Positions 9,202 through 43,441 of a stretch of DNA of 43,817 bases are shown one piece after another; the first letter of the stretch is position 1, and each line of letters opens with the position of its first letter. This DNA is from a virus (lineage: Duplodnaviria; Heunggongvirae; Uroviricota; Caudoviricetes). The position numbers were made by a program, and so were the translations under genes. The notes under the pieces were generated by a model, which was not told the DNA's origin, did no database searches, and saw only the letters and a list, made by a program, of their open reading frames with translations. The stretch is from the IMG/VR virus record IMGVR_UViG_2558860161_000008, positions 1-43,817 of that record. One strand, 5' to 3'.

Positions 9202-9422
9202 TCCGGAATATTTTCAAACGATTTACCAATCAGACTTTCCGTTGTCCTCGCCCCGGTCAGTGGTACACCACGCCTGCAGGGCATGTTCTACGTGTTAGCC
9301 TGGTTGACCGTGAATGTCAGAAGGTGATTTGTGAACCGCTGGGCCGTAATTACCGCGTCAGTATGCCGCTTATAGCCTTTCGCTCCGGAAAAAACATGAA
9401 GCATCTCGGAGGTGCGGCATGA
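9198..9422 (+). CDS. Small hypothetical protein (74 aa)
   Basis: ORF coupled by overlapping stop/start to both flanking genes. Confidence 0.4.
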   Translation: MIRNIFKRFTNQTFRCPRPGQWYTTPAGHVLRVSLVDRECQKVICEPLGRNYRVSMPLIAFRSGKNMKHLGGAA

Positions 9423-10411
9423 GCCTGTTAATGACATCCCAGCCCATTGTGATAAATCGTGATCTTGCATGCCGTATTGGTCTGAATGAGGCAATTGTGT
9501 TGCAGCAGCTTCATTACTGGCTGAATGAAACGAATTCAGGCACTGAGCATGGCGGAATTCGCTGGGTTTATAACACGACAGAACAGTGGCTGGAGCAGTT
9601 TCCGTTCTGGTCAGAGTCCACTCTGAAACGCACATTTGCAAGCCTGAAATCACTTGGGGTTTTGCGTCGCGAGCAACTCAATAAATCGAAGCGTGACATG
9701 ACCAACTTCTACACGATCAACTATGAAAGTGAGCTTTTAGAAGAGGTCAAAGTGAACGAATCCATCAGGTCAAAATGCACTTCTCCATCGGGTCAAAGTG
9801 ACCTGATGGATGGGCGCAAAATGACACGATCCATTGGTTCAAAACGACACGCTGTCATCGGGTCAAAATGGCCCAATGATCTTACAGAGAATACAACAGA
9901 GATTACTACAGAGAATAAAACCTCTTCTCGTCCGGACGCTTCGCAACCGGACACGCAAACGGCTGAACAGGAGTTTTTAACTCGCCATCCTGATGCGGTT
10001 GTATTCAGCCCTAAAAAGCGCCAGTGGGGAACGCAGGATGATTTGACCTGCGCACAGTGGCTCTGGAAAAAAATCATCGCCCTGTACGAGCAGGCCGCCG
10101 AATGTGACGGCGAGGTGGTTCGTCCCAAAGAACCGAACTGGACAGCCTGGGCAAACGAAATTCGCCTGATGTGTGTGCAGGATGGTCGTACTCACAAACA
10201 AATCTGCGAGATGTACAGCCGCGTCAGCCGCGATCCGTTCTGGTGCCGTAACGTGCTCAGCCCGTCGAAGCTGCGGGAAAAATGGGATGAGCTTTCCCTG
10301 CGCTTATCGCCGTCCGTAAGTACGTACACCGAAAAACGCGAAGACCCGTACTTCAAATCCAGTTACGACAACGTGGACTACAGCCAGATCCCGGCAGGAT
10401 TCAGGGGGTGA
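9419..10411 (+). CDS. Replication initiator (lambda O-like N-terminal domain, DnaT-like C-terminal domain)
   Basis: 330 aa; iteron repeats embedded in the central linker-coding region as in lambda O; position after cro/cII-like genes. Confidence 0.6.
   Translation: MSLLMTSQPIVINRDLACRIGLNEAIVLQQLHYWLNETNSGTEHGGIRWVYNTTEQWLEQFPFWSESTLKRTFASLKSLGVLRREQLNKSKRDMTNFYTINYESELLEEVKVNESIRSKCTSPSGQSDLMDGRKMTRSIGSKRHAVIGSKWPNDLTENTTEITTENKTSSRPDASQPDTQTAEQEFLTRHPDAVVFSPKKRQWGTQDDLTCAQWLWKKIIALYEQAAECDGEVVRPKEPNWTAWANEIRLMCVQDGRTHKQICEMYSRVSRDPFWCRNVLSPSKLREKWDELSLRLSPSVSTYTEKREDPYFKSSYDNVDYSQIPAGFRG
9745..9930. repeat. Candidate replication origin: five RGGTCAAARTG iterons plus ACAGAGA repeats
   Basis: Iterons at 9745-9754, 9768-9777, 9791-9800, 9836-9846 (degenerate), 9861-9870; 11-bp inverted repeat 9762-9772 / 9799-9809; three ACAGAGA repeats in 9883-9925. 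Confidence 0.55.
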
Positions 10412-18933: not shown

Positions 18934-19081
18934 TGTCCCATGTCCCACCTCTGGCGATCATTACGGACACCTCGCCAGCTCTGGCTATTCCAGTTTATTC
19001 CAGTGGGACATTCTGGTGGGACATGGCAAAAATGTCCCAGGCGAATGTCCCACCCCAGAAAATGTCCCAGGTGATGTCCCA
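18934..19081. repeat. Array of 8 TGTCCCA/TGGGACA heptamer repeats (candidate terminase-binding cosB-like site)
   Basis: Copies at 18934, 18941, 19004 (rev), 19017 (rev), 19033, 19045, 19063, 19075; the last overlaps the small terminase start codon. Confidence 0.6.
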
Positions 19082-19650
19082 TGACCACGATGAACCAGAG
19101 TCAGTACGCACAACATTCAGGTGTGGATCGCAAAACAATTGGTCGGTGGATTAAAGCCGGGCGCTTCATTGTGATGGACGGAGACCTGATTGACGTAGAG
19201 GCCAGCGATGCGGCATTGAAGAAAAACCGCGATGGCAAAGACCCGCGCGCCTCGAACGCGAAGAAAAAGAAAACTCCCGTCGTTAGCGATAACGATGATG
19301 ACGGTGATGAAATCAATAAAACTGTCCGCCAGATAATGCTCACTGAAGGGGCAGATCTTTCGAGAGAGGAAGCGGGACGTATCCGCGAGAATTACATGGC
19401 CCTGCAGGCAAAGCTGCAGTATGAAAAAGACAGCGGCCAGCTTATTGAGCTGACAGCAGCCGAGGAGGTTTTATTCAACGCCTTTCGCCAACAGCGTGAT
19501 GCCTGGCTTAACTGGCCGTCCAGGGTGGCGCCGCTAATGGCTGCTGATCTGGATGTACCGGCGGACAGGATGACAGAGGTGCTGATTGAACATGTCCACA
19601 AACACATCTCAGTCCTCGGAGAGCCAGAGTTTAACCCGGCAGAAGATTGA
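19081..19650 (+). CDS. Terminase small subunit (Nu1-like)
   Basis: 189 aa; N-terminal HTH-like segment, acidic middle, position before the large terminase with overlapping ends. Confidence 0.7.
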   Translation: MTTMNQSQYAQHSGVDRKTIGRWIKAGRFIVMDGDLIDVEASDAALKKNRDGKDPRASNAKKKKTPVVSDNDDDGDEINKTVRQIMLTEGADLSREEAGRIRENYMALQAKLQYEKDSGQLIELTAAEEVLFNAFRQQRDAWLNWPSRVAPLMAADLDVPADRMTEVLIEHVHKHISVLGEPEFNPAED

Positions 19651-21715
19651 GCGTCTTGAATTAAGCGTCCGCAAAGGCTGGACACCCCCGCCGCGTATCA
19701 GTGTGCCGCAGTGGGCAGATGACTATCGTAAGCTGGCAAAAGAGGCTGGGAGCACTTCGGGAAACTGGGAAACATCGACGGTAGAAATTGCCCGCGGACC
19801 GATGCTTGCCGCGACGGAGTCCGGGGTTCATATCATCACTGTAATGTGCTGTACCCAGTTGATGAAGACAGCACTGCTGGAAAACCTTTTTGGCTATTTT
19901 GCCCACCTCGATCCTTGTCCGATACTGCTGCTGCAGCCGAAAGAAGAAGCCGCTGAACAGTTTTCGAAAGAGCGTATTAGCCCGCTGGTAAGGGTGACGC
20001 CGGTACTGCGTAAAATCATCGGTGATTCGAAACAGAAAAGCTCGAAAGAAACCATTCTTTACAAGGCGTTCACTGGCGGATTTCTGGCGCTGGCGGGTGC
20101 TGGTAGCCCTGATAACCTTGCGCGTCGTCCGATTCGTGTCCTGCTGGCGGATGAAGTGGACAAGTACCCGATAACCCGCGAAGGCGATCCAATTGCGCTG
20201 GCCGAAGAGCGTACAGCGACATTTGGCCTGACCTGGCTGTCTGTACGCGCCTGTTCGCCGACGGTGGAGGATGAGAGCCGCATTGCTGACAGCTACGCCG
20301 ACTCCGATCAGCGCCGGGCATCTGTGGTTTGCCCGCACTGTGGCCACCGCCAGTTCCCCGACTTTTTCAAACACGTTCAGTGGCCGAAAGAGGGAGATAA
20401 ACACCTGACTAAATCGGCGATGCTCTATTGCGAATGCTGTGGTAGTGGCTGGTCCGAAGGACAGCGCCTCAGAGCTCTGCAAACTATTCGATGGCATCAG
20501 ACGCGCCCATTTGAGTGCTGCGGGGAGCGGCACTCACCGCTGATGGATTATGACCTTGCCTGGCGGGCGGCAGACGAGGGCAGCGTTGAAAAGGTCTGGC
20601 AATGGTCAGAGTCGGAACGGCATGCGGTCTATCGCGCAATCTGCCCCTCCTGTGGAAAGGAGGCAGTCGATAACCACCACGCGGGGTACCAGGCATCCAA
20701 GCTTTTCAGCCCCTGGCAAAAAGATAAGCCGTCGGATATTGCGAAAAAATATATCGATGCGAAGGGCGATCCGGATAAGGAACAGGCGTGGTGGAATACC
20801 CAGATGGGGCTTCCGCACCGACCTAATCATGGGAAACAGCTCCCTGTTGATGTTCTGCTGGCGCGCCGGGAAATATTTCCGGCCGTCGTTCCGGACGGGG
20901 TGGCATTGTTAACAGCTGGAGTTGATACCCAGGACGATCGCTTCGAAATTACGATCACCGGCTGGGGGAGAGATGAAGAATCGTGGTCGGTCGCGCATGA
21001 CGTTATTTATGGTGACCTTGAGACGGAAGAACCCTGGAAGCGACTGGATGCATACCTGAAACAGATCTGGCGACGTGGTGACGGGCGCGGCCTGAATATC
21101 ATGGCAACGTGCATGGACTCCGGTGGCCACCATACGCAGAAGGTATACGAATTCGCCAAAGAGCGTCTTGGCCGTCGTGTCTGGGCAATTAAGGGGGAGT
21201 CTGCACAGGGAGGTAAACGCAATCCTGTCTGGCCGACCAAACGACCATCATCGAAAAGCAAAGCCAGTTTCCGCCCTGTCATTCTGGGGGTTAACTCAGC
21301 GAAAGACGTGATACGCGGTCGCCTGCATCTTGAGCCACCCAAACCTGGCGCCGCCGCTGCGGGTTATATGCATTTTCCTGACGATCGCGATCTCGGGTAC
21401 TTCAATCAGCTGCTGGCGGAGCGACTGGTTTACAAAGTCATTTCCGGGCAGCGGTACAGTATCTGGGAAGCAATACCAGGACGAGCTAACGAAGCGCTTG
21501 ACTGCCTCGTTTACAGCTATGCCGCGCTGTGCGGTCTCAAACATATGGGGTTAAAACTCAACGTCCGGGCCGCCAACCTCGAAGCCGATCCGGATAAGTT
21601 CCTGCCAGCGCCAGTTGGACAGGAAGAAAAAATCAATTACGAGCTGCCGGGTGCGGTTATTGAAGAACCAGCGCCGGTCAAACGTAAGCGAATATCGCAA
21701 CTCCTGCCGAAATAA
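19586..21715 (+). CDS. Terminase large subunit (lambda gpA-like)
   Basis: 709-aa ORF with lambda-A-like layout; overlaps the 3' end of the small subunit gene. Confidence 0.85.
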   Translation: MNMSTNTSQSSESQSLTRQKIERLELSVRKGWTPPPRISVPQWADDYRKLAKEAGSTSGNWETSTVEIARGPMLAATESGVHIITVMCCTQLMKTALLENLFGYFAHLDPCPILLLQPKEEAAEQFSKERISPLVRVTPVLRKIIGDSKQKSSKETILYKAFTGGFLALAGAGSPDNLARRPIRVLLADEVDKYPITREGDPIALAEERTATFGLTWLSVRACSPTVEDESRIADSYADSDQRRASVVCPHCGHRQFPDFFKHVQWPKEGDKHLTKSAMLYCECCGSGWSEGQRLRALQTIRWHQTRPFECCGERHSPLMDYDLAWRAADEGSVEKVWQWSESERHAVYRAICPSCGKEAVDNHHAGYQASKLFSPWQKDKPSDIAKKYIDAKGDPDKEQAWWNTQMGLPHRPNHGKQLPVDVLLARREIFPAVVPDGVALLTAGVDTQDDRFEITITGWGRDEESWSVAHDVIYGDLETEEPWKRLDAYLKQIWRRGDGRGLNIMATCMDSGGHHTQKVYEFAKERLGRRVWAIKGESAQGGKRNPVWPTKRPSSKSKASFRPVILGVNSAKDVIRGRLHLEPPKPGAAAAGYMHFPDDRDLGYFNQLLAERLVYKVISGQRYSIWEAIPGRANEALDCLVYSYAALCGLKHMGLKLNVRAANLEADPDKFLPAPVGQEEKINYELPGAVIEEPAPVKRKRISQLLPK

Positions 21716-38705: not shown

Positions 38706-39143
38706 ATGACATTTTTCTACAGCGCAGCACATAATATTTTTGTTTCAGATATTAACAAAACGAGCTATGAGGATGCTGGCTCGTGGCCAGAAGATGCAAA
38801 AGAAGTTTCAGATGAATTATTTTATCAATATTCGCAAAATCCACCGAAAGGCAAAATTCGATCCCATGCAGATGGCCTGCCCATCTGGGAAGATGTCCCA
38901 CCTATGACTGAAGCAGAACTTATTCTGAAAAATAAGAATGAAAAACAACTTCGTATCGATGAAGCCAATAATTATATGAACGGTAAGCAATGGCCAGGTA
39001 AAGCGGCTATTGGTCGTCTGAAAGGTGAGGAACTGGCGCAATATAATTTGTGGCTGGATTATCTGGACGCACTGGAACTGGTTGATACCTCCAGTGCTCC
39101 AGATATTGAATGGCCTACGCATCCGGCAGTTCAGGCCAGATGA
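38706..39143 (+). CDS. Tail fibre assembly protein (Tfa), current orientation
   Basis: 145 aa; C-terminal LWLDYLDALELVDTSSAPDIEWP typical of Tfa chaperones. Confidence 0.55.
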   Translation: MTFFYSAAHNIFVSDINKTSYEDAGSWPEDAKEVSDELFYQYSQNPPKGKIRSHADGLPIWEDVPPMTEAELILKNKNEKQLRIDEANNYMNGKQWPGKAAIGRLKGEELAQYNLWLDYLDALELVDTSSAPDIEWPTHPAVQAR

Positions 39144-39717
39144 CATCCGGCGCGGTGCTGGTATCTGTTGCCGCCACCGCATCAATGTAATCCAGCACAG
39201 CGTTAAGCCGGGTTGTTTCTGCCTGCGTCAGTTTACGTCCGGCCCGTAATTTCAGCTGAATCAGACTAATGGAAGCCATTGCAGCATCAATCAGTGACTG
39301 GCGTTGGATTTCTGCCGCGTCCACTGCGGCGCTATATTGTGCCTCAGTATCCGTCACCCATTTCTCACCATCCCATTTATCATATGGTGTTAACGGGGTG
39401 ATAGTGGTTATATTTTCAGGGTAATCACCCAGAGCTGTGATTTCTTTGGCGTCTCCCGTTTCGGTGTTATAGACAATTTCACCGCGATGGTCTGGTACAT
39501 ATTCCCATGAGTTAAAATCTGCAGAACGGCAGATTGCATAACCAGCTTTATGTGTAACTGGTGCATCTAAACAAGAACATGCCGGGATACCGACGCCAAC
39601 GGCAAGATATTCTGTTGATGATGAAATGTATTCCCGTGTCGTGTTGTCATAGTTATAGACGGTAATATCACCCGCTACTGTGGCAATAAATTCACTGTTT
39701 AATTTTGCCTGTGTCAT
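39115..39717 (-). CDS. Tail fibre assembly protein (Tfa), alternative orientation
   Basis: 200 aa; C-terminal LNAVLDYIDAVAATDTSTAPDVIWPELP Tfa signature; convergent with the plus-strand tfa. Confidence 0.55.
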   Translation of the reverse strand: MTQAKLNSEFIATVAGDITVYNYDNTTREYISSSTEYLAVGVGIPACSCLDAPVTHKAGYAICRSADFNSWEYVPDHRGEIVYNTETGDAKEITALGDYPENITTITPLTPYDKWDGEKWVTDTEAQYSAAVDAAEIQRQSLIDAAMASISLIQLKLRAGRKLTQAETTRLNAVLDYIDAVAATDTSTAPDVIWPELPDA

Positions 39718-40148
39718 TATGCAGCCCTCACAATGTAGTTAAATGCAATGTTGCGGGGGCGCGTTTCATTTCCGTCGGTGTCGCCGGTATCTCTGCCTGC
39801 ATTACCGGAATAGTCGTATACAGCGCCAGTCCCTCCCCCTGTGGCATAGCCTCTAAAAAACGTAAATGCGTGGTGGTGCGCTTTAAATAAATCGGACTGC
39901 GCCGAGAGAAGCGCGCGCCCCGCGTCAATACCGCGCCCGTCATCCCAGCCACGAATAAACTCACCACGTAAATCTGGCAATTCATTTGTCGGATAAACTT
40001 TTGCCAGTTCCGGATACTCTTCGGCAGAAAAAGGCGCACCATTGCATTTCAGCCAGCCTGTTGGCGGAGTGGCTGAAGGCCACGGAACAGGTACACCAAC
40101 GGGTAACGCTGAGCCTTCTCCCAAACCAACCTTTTTTATAACCATCAA
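39717..40148 (-). CDS. Alternative tail-fibre variable C-terminal segment (silent until inversion)
   Basis: 143-aa ORF with tail-fibre/collar-like motifs (GWLKCNGAPF); 5' end lies in the right crossover site. Confidence 0.55.
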   Translation of the reverse strand: MMVIKKVGLGEGSALPVGVPVPWPSATPPTGWLKCNGAPFSAEEYPELAKVYPTNELPDLRGEFIRGWDDGRGIDAGRALLSAQSDLFKAHHHAFTFFRGYATGGGTGAVYDYSGNAGRDTGDTDGNETRPRNIAFNYIVRAA

Positions 40149-40200
40149 AAATCTGGTGATGCTTCGCCGTTTCTCCTGTTTTCATAACAGGAGAAATCCC

Positions 40201-40764
40201 ATGATTTACGGTTATGCCCGAGTATCAACAAACCACCAGGACACTGAATTGCAACTAACGGCGCTCAAGTCAGCGGGTTGTGAGAAAATTTTTGAAGAGC
40301 ATGCCAGCGGGAGGAAATCGAATCGGCCGGTTCTAAAACGGCTGATCGCCACTATGCAGCCGGGGGATGAACTGGTGGTCTGGAAGCTGGACAGGATAGG
40401 CCGCAACGTTCTGCATGCGCTGTTGATGTTCCAGCAGTTACAGGAAAAGGGTATCAACTTCCGCAGTATTACAGATGGCGTAGACCTGAAAACAGCAAGT
40501 GGTCGCTATAATTTCCGTAATATTCTTTCTGCTGCGCAGTATGAATCTGATTTGAATAGCGAGCGAACTTTAGCTGGTTTGGCTATTGCCAGATCCAAAG
40601 GCCGGATTGGTGGGCGTAGACCGAAGTTTAGCGACGAGCAGTGGCAACAGATGGGAGCGCTCATAGCGGCAGGGAAATCACGGCGTTATGTTGCACGTAT
40701 CTATAACGTTGGGCTATCAACCCTATATAAACGATTTCCTGTTACTGGCATTCAAACGAAATAA
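40201..40764 (+). CDS. Serine DNA invertase (Pin/Gin/Hin family)
   Basis: 187 aa; N-terminal GYARVSTNHQ catalytic serine motif and C-terminal HTH; AGGAGA RBS sequestered in a 10-bp perfect hairpin (40170-40195). Confidence 0.85.
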   Translation: MIYGYARVSTNHQDTELQLTALKSAGCEKIFEEHASGRKSNRPVLKRLIATMQPGDELVVWKLDRIGRNVLHALLMFQQLQEKGINFRSITDGVDLKTASGRYNFRNILSAAQYESDLNSERTLAGLAIARSKGRIGGRRPKFSDEQWQQMGALIAAGKSRRYVARIYNVGLSTLYKRFPVTGIQTK

Positions 40765-41217: not shown

Positions 41218-42315
41218 TCAAGAGATCTTATTTCTGCTCCTTTGGAGCTCTTCAAAACGATTATGTAAAGATTTTGGATACAGTTCGGTATATACCTGCC
41301 ATAGCACGTTTAATGAACGATGCCCTGTAACCTGGGCTACTTCCTCAATACTAAAACCAGCCTCAAATAAGCGACTTGCCCCTTCTCTACGCAAATCATG
41401 GTATCGCAGATCCTTAATACCTAATTTGCTTCTTACCCTCTGAAATCCCGCAGTAACAGAAGTGCTGTTATATGGAAAAATGAATTCCGATTTTTGGGGC
41501 TGTCGTTGGACGATATCCCAGGCTTCCCCAAGCAAGGCTACTTTCATGTGGTTGCCTTCCTTTTTGCGTGGATCTTTCCTGTCTCTTACGAGTATAGATT
41601 TTTGTTCCTGGTCGAGATCTTCCCATCGTAACCGGCATACTTCTCCGATTCGCATACAGGACCACACAGAAAATTTGAGGATATCAACGAACGGAATTTT
41701 TGAGCATTTATGAGTAGATCGTTGTTGAAGGCCTTCAATGAGCATGTCCAGTTCATCAGATGCTGGTCTACGATTACGACGGTTTGATTTACCAATTAAA
41801 CCAAGTTTAAGTAGATATGGACGAGCGGCTTTTGCTGGGTTTGATGTGTAATTAATTCCATATACAGGTTTGGCAGCATCCAGAACACTGCCAAGATAAC
41901 TAACATCGTGGCTAACTGTAGCTGGACCTGCACCAGCGTTGTTTCTTAGCCTGCAATGTTCAATTACGTCATTTTCTGTCAGTTCAGATAGTTTGATCGC
42001 GGAGATGTCACTATCCATAAGCAGTTCCAGCACATATCTTTTAGTACGGCCTGCTTTACCTCCGGCATTTGGGTCATTTAAATATTTGTGTAGTAAGTCA
42101 CGGACTGTAAGTCCGTCAACTGCATTTGATGATGGAATGCCATATAGATCTAATTCCATCACTTTCTGTGTGCCCCATGTTTTGGCATGAGCATGTTTAG
42201 GGAATGTTTTGCTTTCCCTGTAAGTGATAACACCTTTTTCTTTGATAATCACATTACAGCGATAGCGTGGTGTGCCATCGGATTTTAGTCGTTTCTCTAT
42301 GTTATAGTACGCCAT
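41218..42315 (-). CDS. Tyrosine integrase (dusA-associated type)
   Basis: 365 aa; C-terminal catalytic region with R...HDLRR...Y motifs; adjacent to and divergent from dusA. Confidence 0.85.
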   Translation of the reverse strand: MAYYNIEKRLKSDGTPRYRCNVIIKEKGVITYRESKTFPKHAHAKTWGTQKVMELDLYGIPSSNAVDGLTVRDLLHKYLNDPNAGGKAGRTKRYVLELLMDSDISAIKLSELTENDVIEHCRLRNNAGAGPATVSHDVSYLGSVLDAAKPVYGINYTSNPAKAARPYLLKLGLIGKSNRRNRRPASDELDMLIEGLQQRSTHKCSKIPFVDILKFSVWSCMRIGEVCRLRWEDLDQEQKSILVRDRKDPRKKEGNHMKVALLGEAWDIVQRQPQKSEFIFPYNSTSVTAGFQRVRSKLGIKDLRYHDLRREGASRLFEAGFSIEEVAQVTGHRSLNVLWQVYTELYPKSLHNRFEELQRSRNKIS

Positions 42316-42403
42316 TACACGACCTCGTTATTTCGGGTTCCCATAAAACGTGGGAACCTGTGCGGGAACCTAACGCGAGAAAAATAGCCTGAAATGTTCA
42401 AAA

Positions 42404-43441
42404 ATGCACGATAATCATGAAACACAAAAAATTAATCAAACCAGCGTGATGCCTGAAAAAACTGGTGTTTACTGGAATTCTCGGTTTAGCATTGCTCCTA
42501 TGCTCGACTGGACGGACAGACATTGCCGCTATTTCTTGCGTCTGCTTTCCCGCAATACGTTGCTGTATACCGAAATGGTGACCACAGGGGCGATTATTCA
42601 CGGTAAAGGTGATTACCTGGCGTACAGTGAAGAAGAACATCCGGTAGCGTTGCAACTCGGCGGTAGCGATCCGGCGGCGCTGGCACAGTGTGCGAAGCTG
42701 GCAGAAGCGCGTGGATATGATGAGATCAACCTGAATGTCGGCTGCCCGTCTGACCGGGTGCAGAACGGCATGTTTGGTGCGTGTCTGATGGGTAATGCGC
42801 AGCTGGTTGCCGACTGCGTGAAAGCGATGCGCGATGTGGTGTCGATTCCGGTGACGGTGAAAACGCGTATTGGCATCGACGACCAGGACAGCTATGAATT
42901 TCTCTGCGATTTCATCAACACCGTTTCCGGCAAAGGCGAGTGTGAGATGTTCATCATCCATGCACGTAAAGCCTGGCTTTCGGGGTTAAGTCCGAAAGAA
43001 AACCGTGAGATCCCGCCGCTCGATTATCCGCGTGTGTATCAACTGAAGCGTGACTTTCCGCATCTGACAATGTCGATTAACGGTGGTATCAAGTCGCTGG
43101 AAGAGGCCAAAGCACACCTGCAACATATGGATGGCGTGATGGTCGGGCGCGAGGCGTATCAGAATCCGGGTATTCTGGCGGCGGTAGACCGGGAGATCTT
43201 TGGTTCCTCGGATATCGATGCCGATCCGGTGGCGGTAGTGCGCGCCATGTATCCGTACATTGAGCGTGAACTCAGCCAGGGGACGTATCTCGGTCATATT
43301 ACCCGGCATATGTTGGGCTTGTTCCAGGGTATTCCTGGCGCGCGGCAGTGGCGGCGTTATTTAAGTGAAAATGCCCATAAAGCGGGTGCAGACATTAATG
43401 TGCTGGAACACGCGCTCAAACTGGTGGCGGATAAGCGTTAA
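42404..43441 (+). CDS. dusA: tRNA-dihydrouridine synthase A; 5' end likely supplied by the prophage
   Basis: 345 aa; near-full-length match to remembered E. coli DusA; integrase immediately upstream. Confidence 0.85.

Follow-up and report, generated by a model that had tools for sequence, protein, structure and literature searches.

The right end of the DNA analysed here raises two questions: how an integrase gene came to stand next to a divergently oriented dusA, and what the GGGAACC repeats in the short region shared by the two genes are for. The whole stretch, called the window below, is 43,817 nucleotides long (IMG/VR record IMGVR_UViG_2558860161_000008). The starts of the two genes are separated by 88 bp (42316-42403, by direct reading), and the initial annotation had taken this divergent pair for a prophage junction; both the coordinates, read directly, and the matches to sequenced genomes confirm it. 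By sequence comparison, the segment 42316-42507 is the attR site of an mEp460-like prophage of about 42.7 kb, which a dusA-specific tyrosine integrase inserted into dusA at codon 33. The main parts of the junction are the following.

41218-42315, minus strand: tyrosine integrase of the dusA-specific family, 365 aa (ORF; Pfam Phage_integrase PF00589, 7.5e-21)
42404-42499, plus strand: phage-supplied replacement dusA 5' end, codons 1-32 (81% identical to K-12)
42500-42507, no strand: att identity block ATGCTCGA, present once in the window (four-way comparison of attL, attB, attR and attP)
42508-43441, plus strand: rest of dusA, host-derived (98.8% identical to K-12; annotated as dusA in all genomes)

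The dusA reading frame (42404-43441, plus strand) encodes 345 aa, according to direct reading and the ORF list. When the window is aligned to the empty dusA locus of E. coli K-12, homology starts just 5' of the dusA ATG. Up to 42499, 18 of the 96 nucleotides differ, with 9 amino acid changes within the first 30 residues; from 42500 to 42507 there are zero mismatches; downstream of this block only 11 of 934 nucleotides differ. The alignment places the core of attR at 42500-42507. It also upholds two points of the initial annotation, that the N-terminus of DusA departs from the E. coli sequence and that the element supplies a replacement 5' end: the 5' region of dusA is not that of prophage-free strains, and the att site does not map elsewhere. 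In the attP of free phage mEp460, the replacement dusA segment runs contiguous with int. All of the DNA to the left of ATGCTCGA comes from the phage, a similar copy of dusA codons 1-32 among it, and since the phage brings these codons along, the gene stays intact after insertion.

The four attachment sites were aligned, the attP being that of free phage mEp460_4F5, which matches the reconstructed attP exactly; the mEp460 record itself carries no attP annotation.

attB: ...GTTGCACCA ATGCTCGA CTGGACGG...
attL: ...GTTGCACCA ATGCTCGA TAGGATGT...
attR: ...ATTGCTCCT ATGCTCGA CTGGACGG...
attP: ...ATTGCTCCT ATGCTTGA TAGGATGT...

Only the 8-bp block ATGCTCGA is common to all four, and strand exchange is therefore placed within 42500-42507. 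Inverted half-sites around a short overlap are the usual core anatomy of tyrosine recombinases, and the attP core has TCCTA (42496-42500) and TAGGA around the 7-bp TGCTCGA (42501-42507), which is the probable overlap. The right half-site of attR, CTGGA (42508-42512), comes from the host. Besides the exact ATGCTCGA, attL and attR are alike at about 15 of the 21 positions around it. The same core is present in Yersinia phage YeP2, Salinivibrio SMHB1 and a Vibrio element, and ATGATGGA is found in Ralstonia and Pseudomonas.

A repeat search and a search with the core pattern, allowing 3 mismatches, returned only the attR copy within the window, so that attL must be outside it, as had been expected, beyond the left edge. 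Strain 1332KP, 99.7% identical over the window's left 6 kb, has a dusA' pseudogene of K-12-type sequence, truncated to 105 bp, which ends about 254 bp before the equivalent of window position 1. By this match attL lies about 254 bp to the left of the window and holds the displaced native dusA 5' end. Its phage-side arm reads tgtGGGAGCCtattGGGAACCtg, and the far-arm fragment with repeats includes TGTGGGAGCCTATTGGGAACCTG. For prophages of this class, the core ATGCTCGA and an attP reaching from about -165 to +70 make precise calling of attL and attR possible.

Elements of this kind have been described. The dusA-specific integrases (DAI) insert at the 5' end of dusA, the ORF is restored by a 5' end supplied by the element, and the att sites are semiconserved repeats of about 21 bp, centred on the region coding for ...PMLDW; the cargo is diverse, and E. 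coli examples were already noted (Farrugia 2015, NAR 43:4547, PMC4482086). The element described here has the same integrase, adjoining and divergent from dusA, and the same replacement, and differs from DAI elements in nothing essential; its cargo is a lambdoid phage with a myovirus tail. In addition to that report, the region of exchange is here narrowed to 8 bp, and arm sites and an extended -10 embedded in int are proposed; the term arm-type site is absent from Farrugia 2015, where -10/-35 boxes are only predicted, in the supplement (PMC4482086). The island IMEVchUSA3 supplies E. coli dusA with a new promoter and a 35-residue N-terminus, and its integration into K-12 dusA was demonstrated (Durand 2021, PLoS Genet, PMC8409611). 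In the same study, excision of dusA-specific elements was shown to depend on RdfN, a PrtN-like protein whose gene lies across attP from int. IMEVchUSA3 resembles the present element in having int and a PrtN-like directionality factor on opposite sides of attP and an N-terminus of identical length; it is, however, an SGI1-like mobilisable island under AcaCD, while the present element is a phage with lambdoid regulation (PMC8409611). A gene of the same family was found at the left end of the window.

1250-1531, minus strand: PrtN-family gene, probable recombination directionality factor RdfN (ORF 1250-1531/1558; Pfam PyocinActivator PF11112, 4.2e-23; RefSeq annotation in 1332KP)

It stands at the end of the prophage opposite to int, and in the circular form is thus placed across attP from it. 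Between attL and rdfN, the segment 1-989 contains a gene with a Panacea (SocA-like antitoxin) domain and a small ORF, transcribed away from attL; they are moron-like cargo at the end of the prophage, and could form a toxin-antitoxin or defence module.

In its int-dinI-attP module the prophage shows 97-99% identity to mEp460/mEp460_4F5 (JQ182728, LR595868), Lys8385Vzw, Stx phage 1720a-02 and SKA5. The early region is 94-98% identical to mEp460-type phages over 55-68% of its length, but no deposited phage covers 80% or more of either half of the window, the genomes being mosaic. From these matches the prophage is described as intact-looking and lambdoid, with a recombination module like that of mEp460 and with early and late regions that are mosaic. 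Targeting of dusA, replacement of its 5' end and excision by a PrtN-like factor have all been published, and there is nothing new in the junction itself: it is an ordinary one, of a type already described, in a common E. coli prophage. What the sequence adds concerns its finer anatomy.

The initial annotation had pointed out GGTTCCC-N9-GGGAACC and a further GGGAACC upstream of dusA, and its positions are exact: GGTTCCC at 42336-42342 is followed, after 9 nt, by GGGAACC at 42352-42358, and a second GGGAACC lies at 42364-42370. Slightly extended, the three copies and the A-rich DNA next to them are the following.

42334-42344, minus strand: candidate arm-type Int site, inverted, ATGGGAACCCG on the minus strand; left half of the 'hairpin'; -164 from the core, as in YeP2
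42350-42360, plus strand: candidate arm-type Int site, direct copy 1, GTGGGAACCTG; -148 from the core, as in YeP2
42362-42372, plus strand: candidate arm-type Int site, direct copy 2, GCGGGAACCTA; 12 bp from copy 1, -136 from the core
42380-42403, plus strand: run of A-tracts with a period of about 10-11 bp, separating the arm sites from the dusA' start codon (read from the sequence)

In the complete attP, five copies of GGGA(A/G)CC are present, at -164 (inverted), -148, -136, +51 and +62, and they are unlike the core half-sites TCCTA/TAGGA. In all, the window has 9 copies of the 7-mer GGGAACC. By chance, three copies of just this word would fall within 40 bp about 5e-5 times per window (0 of 400 Markov simulations), whereas a triple of this sort formed by any 7-mer was seen in 29% of the simulated windows (mean 0.34 per window). 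Such triples being common, the cluster is significant only by virtue of the gap having been specified beforehand (about 7e-4) and of the comparative evidence.

The latter begins with YeP2, whose Int is 68% identical and whose sites lie at -164, -148, -136, +50 and +61, with the word GGGGTGCT instead of GGGAACC. The same layout is filled by other words in Salinivibrio SMHB1 (GGGAGAC) and Shewanella M16-3 (GGGGC-type), and by TGTAGCAA in Ralstonia YL4 and Pseudomonas F1Pa, with an Int only about 35% identical. In Klebsiella phage Kp4886-1 (loci L007/L008; Int 52% identical), GGGGTGCTG occurs twice near int and GGGGTTCT and GGGGTCCT are found on the far arm; the dusA' segment, the ATGCTCGA core and the extended -10 are all missing, and by its sequence this phage is a relative with a different target site.

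A set of 79 genomic loci was gathered, with an alignment of their integrases. A direct pair of motifs 11-12 bp apart, with a score of at least 8/9, was found in 61 of the 79 loci, where shuffled sequences give about 1 in 79, and an upstream inverted copy is present in about one third of them (some 23-27 of 66). At least eight motif classes were read by eye (GGGAACC, GGGGTGCT, GGTGTAC, GGTGTCC, GGGATCC, GGGATAC, GGGGCAC/G and GGGGTAC), automatic clustering at distance 0 having merged distinct G-rich motifs. The relation between motif and integrase was evaluated by a partial Mantel test, which ignores phylogeny: motif distance follows the distance over Int residues 1-60 when the rest of the protein is controlled for (partial r 0.47, permutation p 5e-4), but not the distance over the rest when residues 1-60 are controlled for (r -0.09). 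Likewise, when alignment columns are ranked by their mutual information with motif class, again irrespective of phylogeny, 11 of the top 25 fall within Int residues 1-60, where 4 are expected; by eye, the informative N-domain columns cluster at residues 21-35 or so. In one locus, from Escherichia sp. MOD1-EC7003 (L015; Int 99% identical), the equivalents of 42336-42358 show an A-to-G change shared by the inverted and the first direct site (GGGTCCCC ... GGGGACC), which could reflect a tolerated motif position, gene conversion between the sites or selection on a stem.

The integrase itself has a complete catalytic signature (R222, H306-x-x-R309, H332, Y342). It is 99.7% identical to the Int of Stx phage 1720a-02 and 98.9% identical to that of mEp460_4F5; integrases of Pseudomonas, Burkholderia, Ralstonia and Acinetobacter phages show 31-36% identity over more than 90% of the length, and two of these distant phages also bear a dusA' segment and the core. 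The AF2 model of the protein (pLDDT 85) gives fold matches to the Tn1549 and lambda integrases. Its N-terminal part consists of three strands (2-10, 16-26 and 29-38) and a helix (41-58), with a pLDDT of 84-94, and residues 1-60 are predicted to form an arm-binding domain made of a three-stranded sheet and a helix. Structural alignments extend over 359-372 columns with full-length lambda Int chains, against 290-299 with lambda Int(75-356). A single-sequence AF2 model of residues 1-65 alone had a pLDDT of 51 and was discarded. A search for sequence homology of the N-domain, by Pfam at E<=10 and by a 39-sequence profile against the PDB, gave only noise.

A motif on both arms, in a fixed layout and covarying with the N-domain, would be the signature of arm-type sites read by the N-terminal domain, as in lambda. 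The GGGAACC copies are most likely arm-type sites of Int, rather than a hairpin or a promoter, with a specificity that would be set by the Int N-domain, on correlative evidence. Of the two functions that had been suggested for the repeats, arm sites for the integrase thus have comparative support, while that of a dusA promoter is not supported, the gap containing no sigma-70 consensus. No description of arm sites in the dusA-specific family was found in the searchable literature. The combination of a rigid layout with a 7-9-bp motif that has diversified along with an N-domain of about 60 residues makes the family a natural data set for learning, and re-engineering, the arm specificity of tyrosine integrases.

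In the inverted pair GGTTCCC-N9-GGGAACC one may also see a nucleic-acid hairpin, either as RNA, where a stem-loop in the 5' UTR of dusA' or in the leader of int would act on stability, translation or attenuation, or as a DNA cruciform. The plus-strand RNA folds to -17.7 kcal/mol (z -3.1), only 1 of 200 shuffles being as good, and, if the extended -10 described below is real, the stem would lie about 20-45 nt into the dusA' transcript; the int-sense fold, on the other hand, is unremarkable (-12.6 kcal/mol, z -1.2), and neither a T-run nor a terminator follows. The MOD1-EC7003 locus alters both halves together, but covariation between halves is equally expected of inverted protein sites. Moreover, an inverted copy scoring at least 8/9 is present in only 23 of 66 related loci, although the direct pair is nearly universal, and a hairpin leaves unexplained the third copy, 12 bp off, as well as the two copies on the far arm. 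Such a function is improbable for these repeats.

The repeats could also be bound by a phage protein other than Int, such as the PrtN-like RdfN, acting as an excisionase, a repressor of both int and dusA', or some further factor evolving together with Int. Direct repeats on one of the att arms are the typical targets of excisionases; RdfN, whose gene lies across attP, has to act at att; and regions between divergent genes, such as the one holding these sites, often contain operators. We consider this unlikely, since the motif is found on both arms with a lambda-like asymmetry, its identity tracks the N-terminal domain of Int specifically, and the beta-sheet N-domain predicted for Int has no other obvious role. 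A third possibility is that the repeats drive dusA' as promoter or UP-type elements: a promoter has to come from the element (Durand 2021), and upstream of dusA' only the gap is non-coding. A consensus scan of 42150-42560 nevertheless found neither a pair of sigma-70-like hexamers nor a terminator; the motif varies freely between lineages, as promoter hexamers do not, its far-arm copies are irrelevant to dusA, and a conserved extended -10 is located elsewhere. A promoter role of the repeats is therefore very improbable.

The best candidate for the promoter of dusA is an element located inside the integrase gene.

42298-42308, plus strand: candidate extended -10, TATGtTATAGT = TATGTTATAGT, directed toward dusA; antisense of int codons 3-6

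TATGTTATAGT is of the TRTGnTATAAT type. Among 39 integrases of the MAYY type, 34 have TAT for Tyr4, 34 use the rare ATA for Ile6, and 33 have a C in the third position of codon 5; the end of TGnTATA(G/A)T is invariably 7 nt before the ATG complement. Within the enterobacterial clade, 24 of 27 loci adjacent to dusA have the extended -10, against 6 of 15 non-adjacent ones (Fisher p 0.0014, not corrected for phylogeny). It is likely, from this codon usage, that the dusA promoter is the extended -10 at 42298-42308, held by constraint on synonymous sites; in part, the element could also stem from a bias toward A/T-rich codons close to the start of the gene. Transcription of dusA' is inferred to start at about 42315, in which case the whole 88-bp gap, arm sites included, would be the dusA' 5' UTR. 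The same -10 element lies upstream of dusA in K-12 and ST1193 (TATGGTATAGT, TATGCTATAGT). In the marine clade, unlike in the present element, the integrases lack the embedded extended -10, although dusA adjoins. The six non-adjacent exceptions are Xenorhabdus elements, with a decayed dusA'-like leader beside other genes. In Xenorhabdus spp. (loci L040 and L046-L051), the first 330 bp or so upstream of int contain GGGGTGCT arm repeats, the extended -10 and a leader ATGCACGAAAAT... with stop codons; they appear to be retargeted elements that kept an outward-facing promoter.

For int, sigma-70 consensus scans of the junction and of the mEp460 attP identified no promoter. The 'promoter' feature in the mEp460 GenBank record was rejected, as it belongs to dinI. 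No published description of an extended -10 embedded in int was found in the searchable literature. Integrase codons that overlap the probable promoter of the rescued host gene would show how an element can keep its target expressed within an 88-bp gap.

Taken together, an attR junction in which the GGGAACC copies are Int arm-type sites, RdfN directs excision and the extended -10 serves dusA' is a very probable reading of this locus, based on sequence comparison. Int would contact the arm sites through its N-terminal beta-sheet domain and the core through its C-terminal domains, and by bridging them would bend attP into a lambda-like intasome; the PrtN-like RdfN would direct excision. The 'hairpin' would be a by-product of two protein sites in opposite orientation. 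The phased A-tracts may replace an IHF site by an intrinsic bend, or be a site for an accessory factor or an UP-like element; 10-bp periodic repeats or A-tracts are found at the same place in the related loci L026, L029, L030, L079, L084 and L088.

Lambda Int shares with this system a three-domain architecture (predicted here), candidate arm sites of 10-11 bp that are repeated on both arms and distinct from the core, a 7-bp overlap with inverted half-sites and a separate excision factor. The arms are asymmetric in both, about -165/+70 here, those of lambda attP being roughly -150 and +90. The two differ in that the N-domains have no detectable sequence homology and the site sequences are unrelated; in that the directionality factor is here of the PrtN type and encoded across att, not beside int; and in that the long arm here includes dusA', a gene fragment that is functional, and probably also the promoter and 5' UTR of dusA'. 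Phased A-tracts are present here, sites for IHF or other bending factors not having been identified. The added anatomy (arm architecture, co-evolving specificity, promoter in the int start) is plausible, and would be an elaboration of lambda-type biology, not new in kind.

A further possibility, rather doubtful at present, is that the att site doubles as a regulatory node, at which Int bound to the P-arm would throttle dusA' and int at once, by roadblock or transcriptional interference. The arm sites would lie within the first 55 nt or so of the dusA' transcript and directly upstream of int. If true, the state of the prophage intasome would be coupled to dihydrouridylation of host tRNA.

The distribution of the junction was evaluated by comparing a 401-bp probe with 5,426 complete E. 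coli genomes, all of which matched. In 742 of them (14%), at least 80% of the probe is covered and int is annotated beside dusA. Strains of O157:H7 also have the junction, at 98.8% identity. Most of the remaining genomes, K-12 included, match only from about 42401, with around 92% identity, and correspond to an empty attB of K-12 type; in a third class, exemplified by an ST1193 strain, the match begins only at about 42491.

Two distinct 'empty' alleles of the dusA 5' end are seen in E. coli (K-12, locus L001 1141-1600; ST1193, locus L002 2800-3000). Their mutual homology begins exactly at ATGCTCGA, and on the 5' side of this block all codons show synonymous differences. Between zur and dusA, K-12 has a DUF2713 pseudogene region; it also contains the int-start-like string TATGGTATAGTACcCC, and its N-terminus has 35 residues, the same length as the versions supplied by elements. 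The 'native' 5' end and promoter of K-12 dusA may be the fossil of an older element of the dusA-integrating family. A tblastn search for a decayed integrase upstream of K-12 dusA gave nothing significant, a 13-nt match to the int start being all that is present, and no ST1193-type dusA' fragment, as a relic of attL, was found next to zur.

Other repeats and switches were observed elsewhere in the window. Between 19004 and 19082, six copies of TGGGACAT are present, as direct GTGGGACAT at 19004 and 19017 and as inverted ATGTCCCA at 19032, 19045, 19062 and 19074, immediately upstream of an ORF (19081-19650) and of a large terminase of the lambda gpA type (19586-21715); they look like binding sites for the terminase small subunit (cosB-like). 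Inside a replication-initiator-like ORF (9419-10411), the segment 9786-9915 contains CATCGGGTCAAARTGRCC twice, 70 bp apart, followed by three copies of ACAGAGA at 12-bp spacing, which are probably origin iterons. At 39115-40764, a serine invertase of the Pin/Gin type (Resolvase and HTH_7 domains) lies beside oppositely oriented pairs of tail-fibre and tail-fibre-assembly genes; by its gene content, this segment is a host-range inversion switch, unrelated to the att junction.
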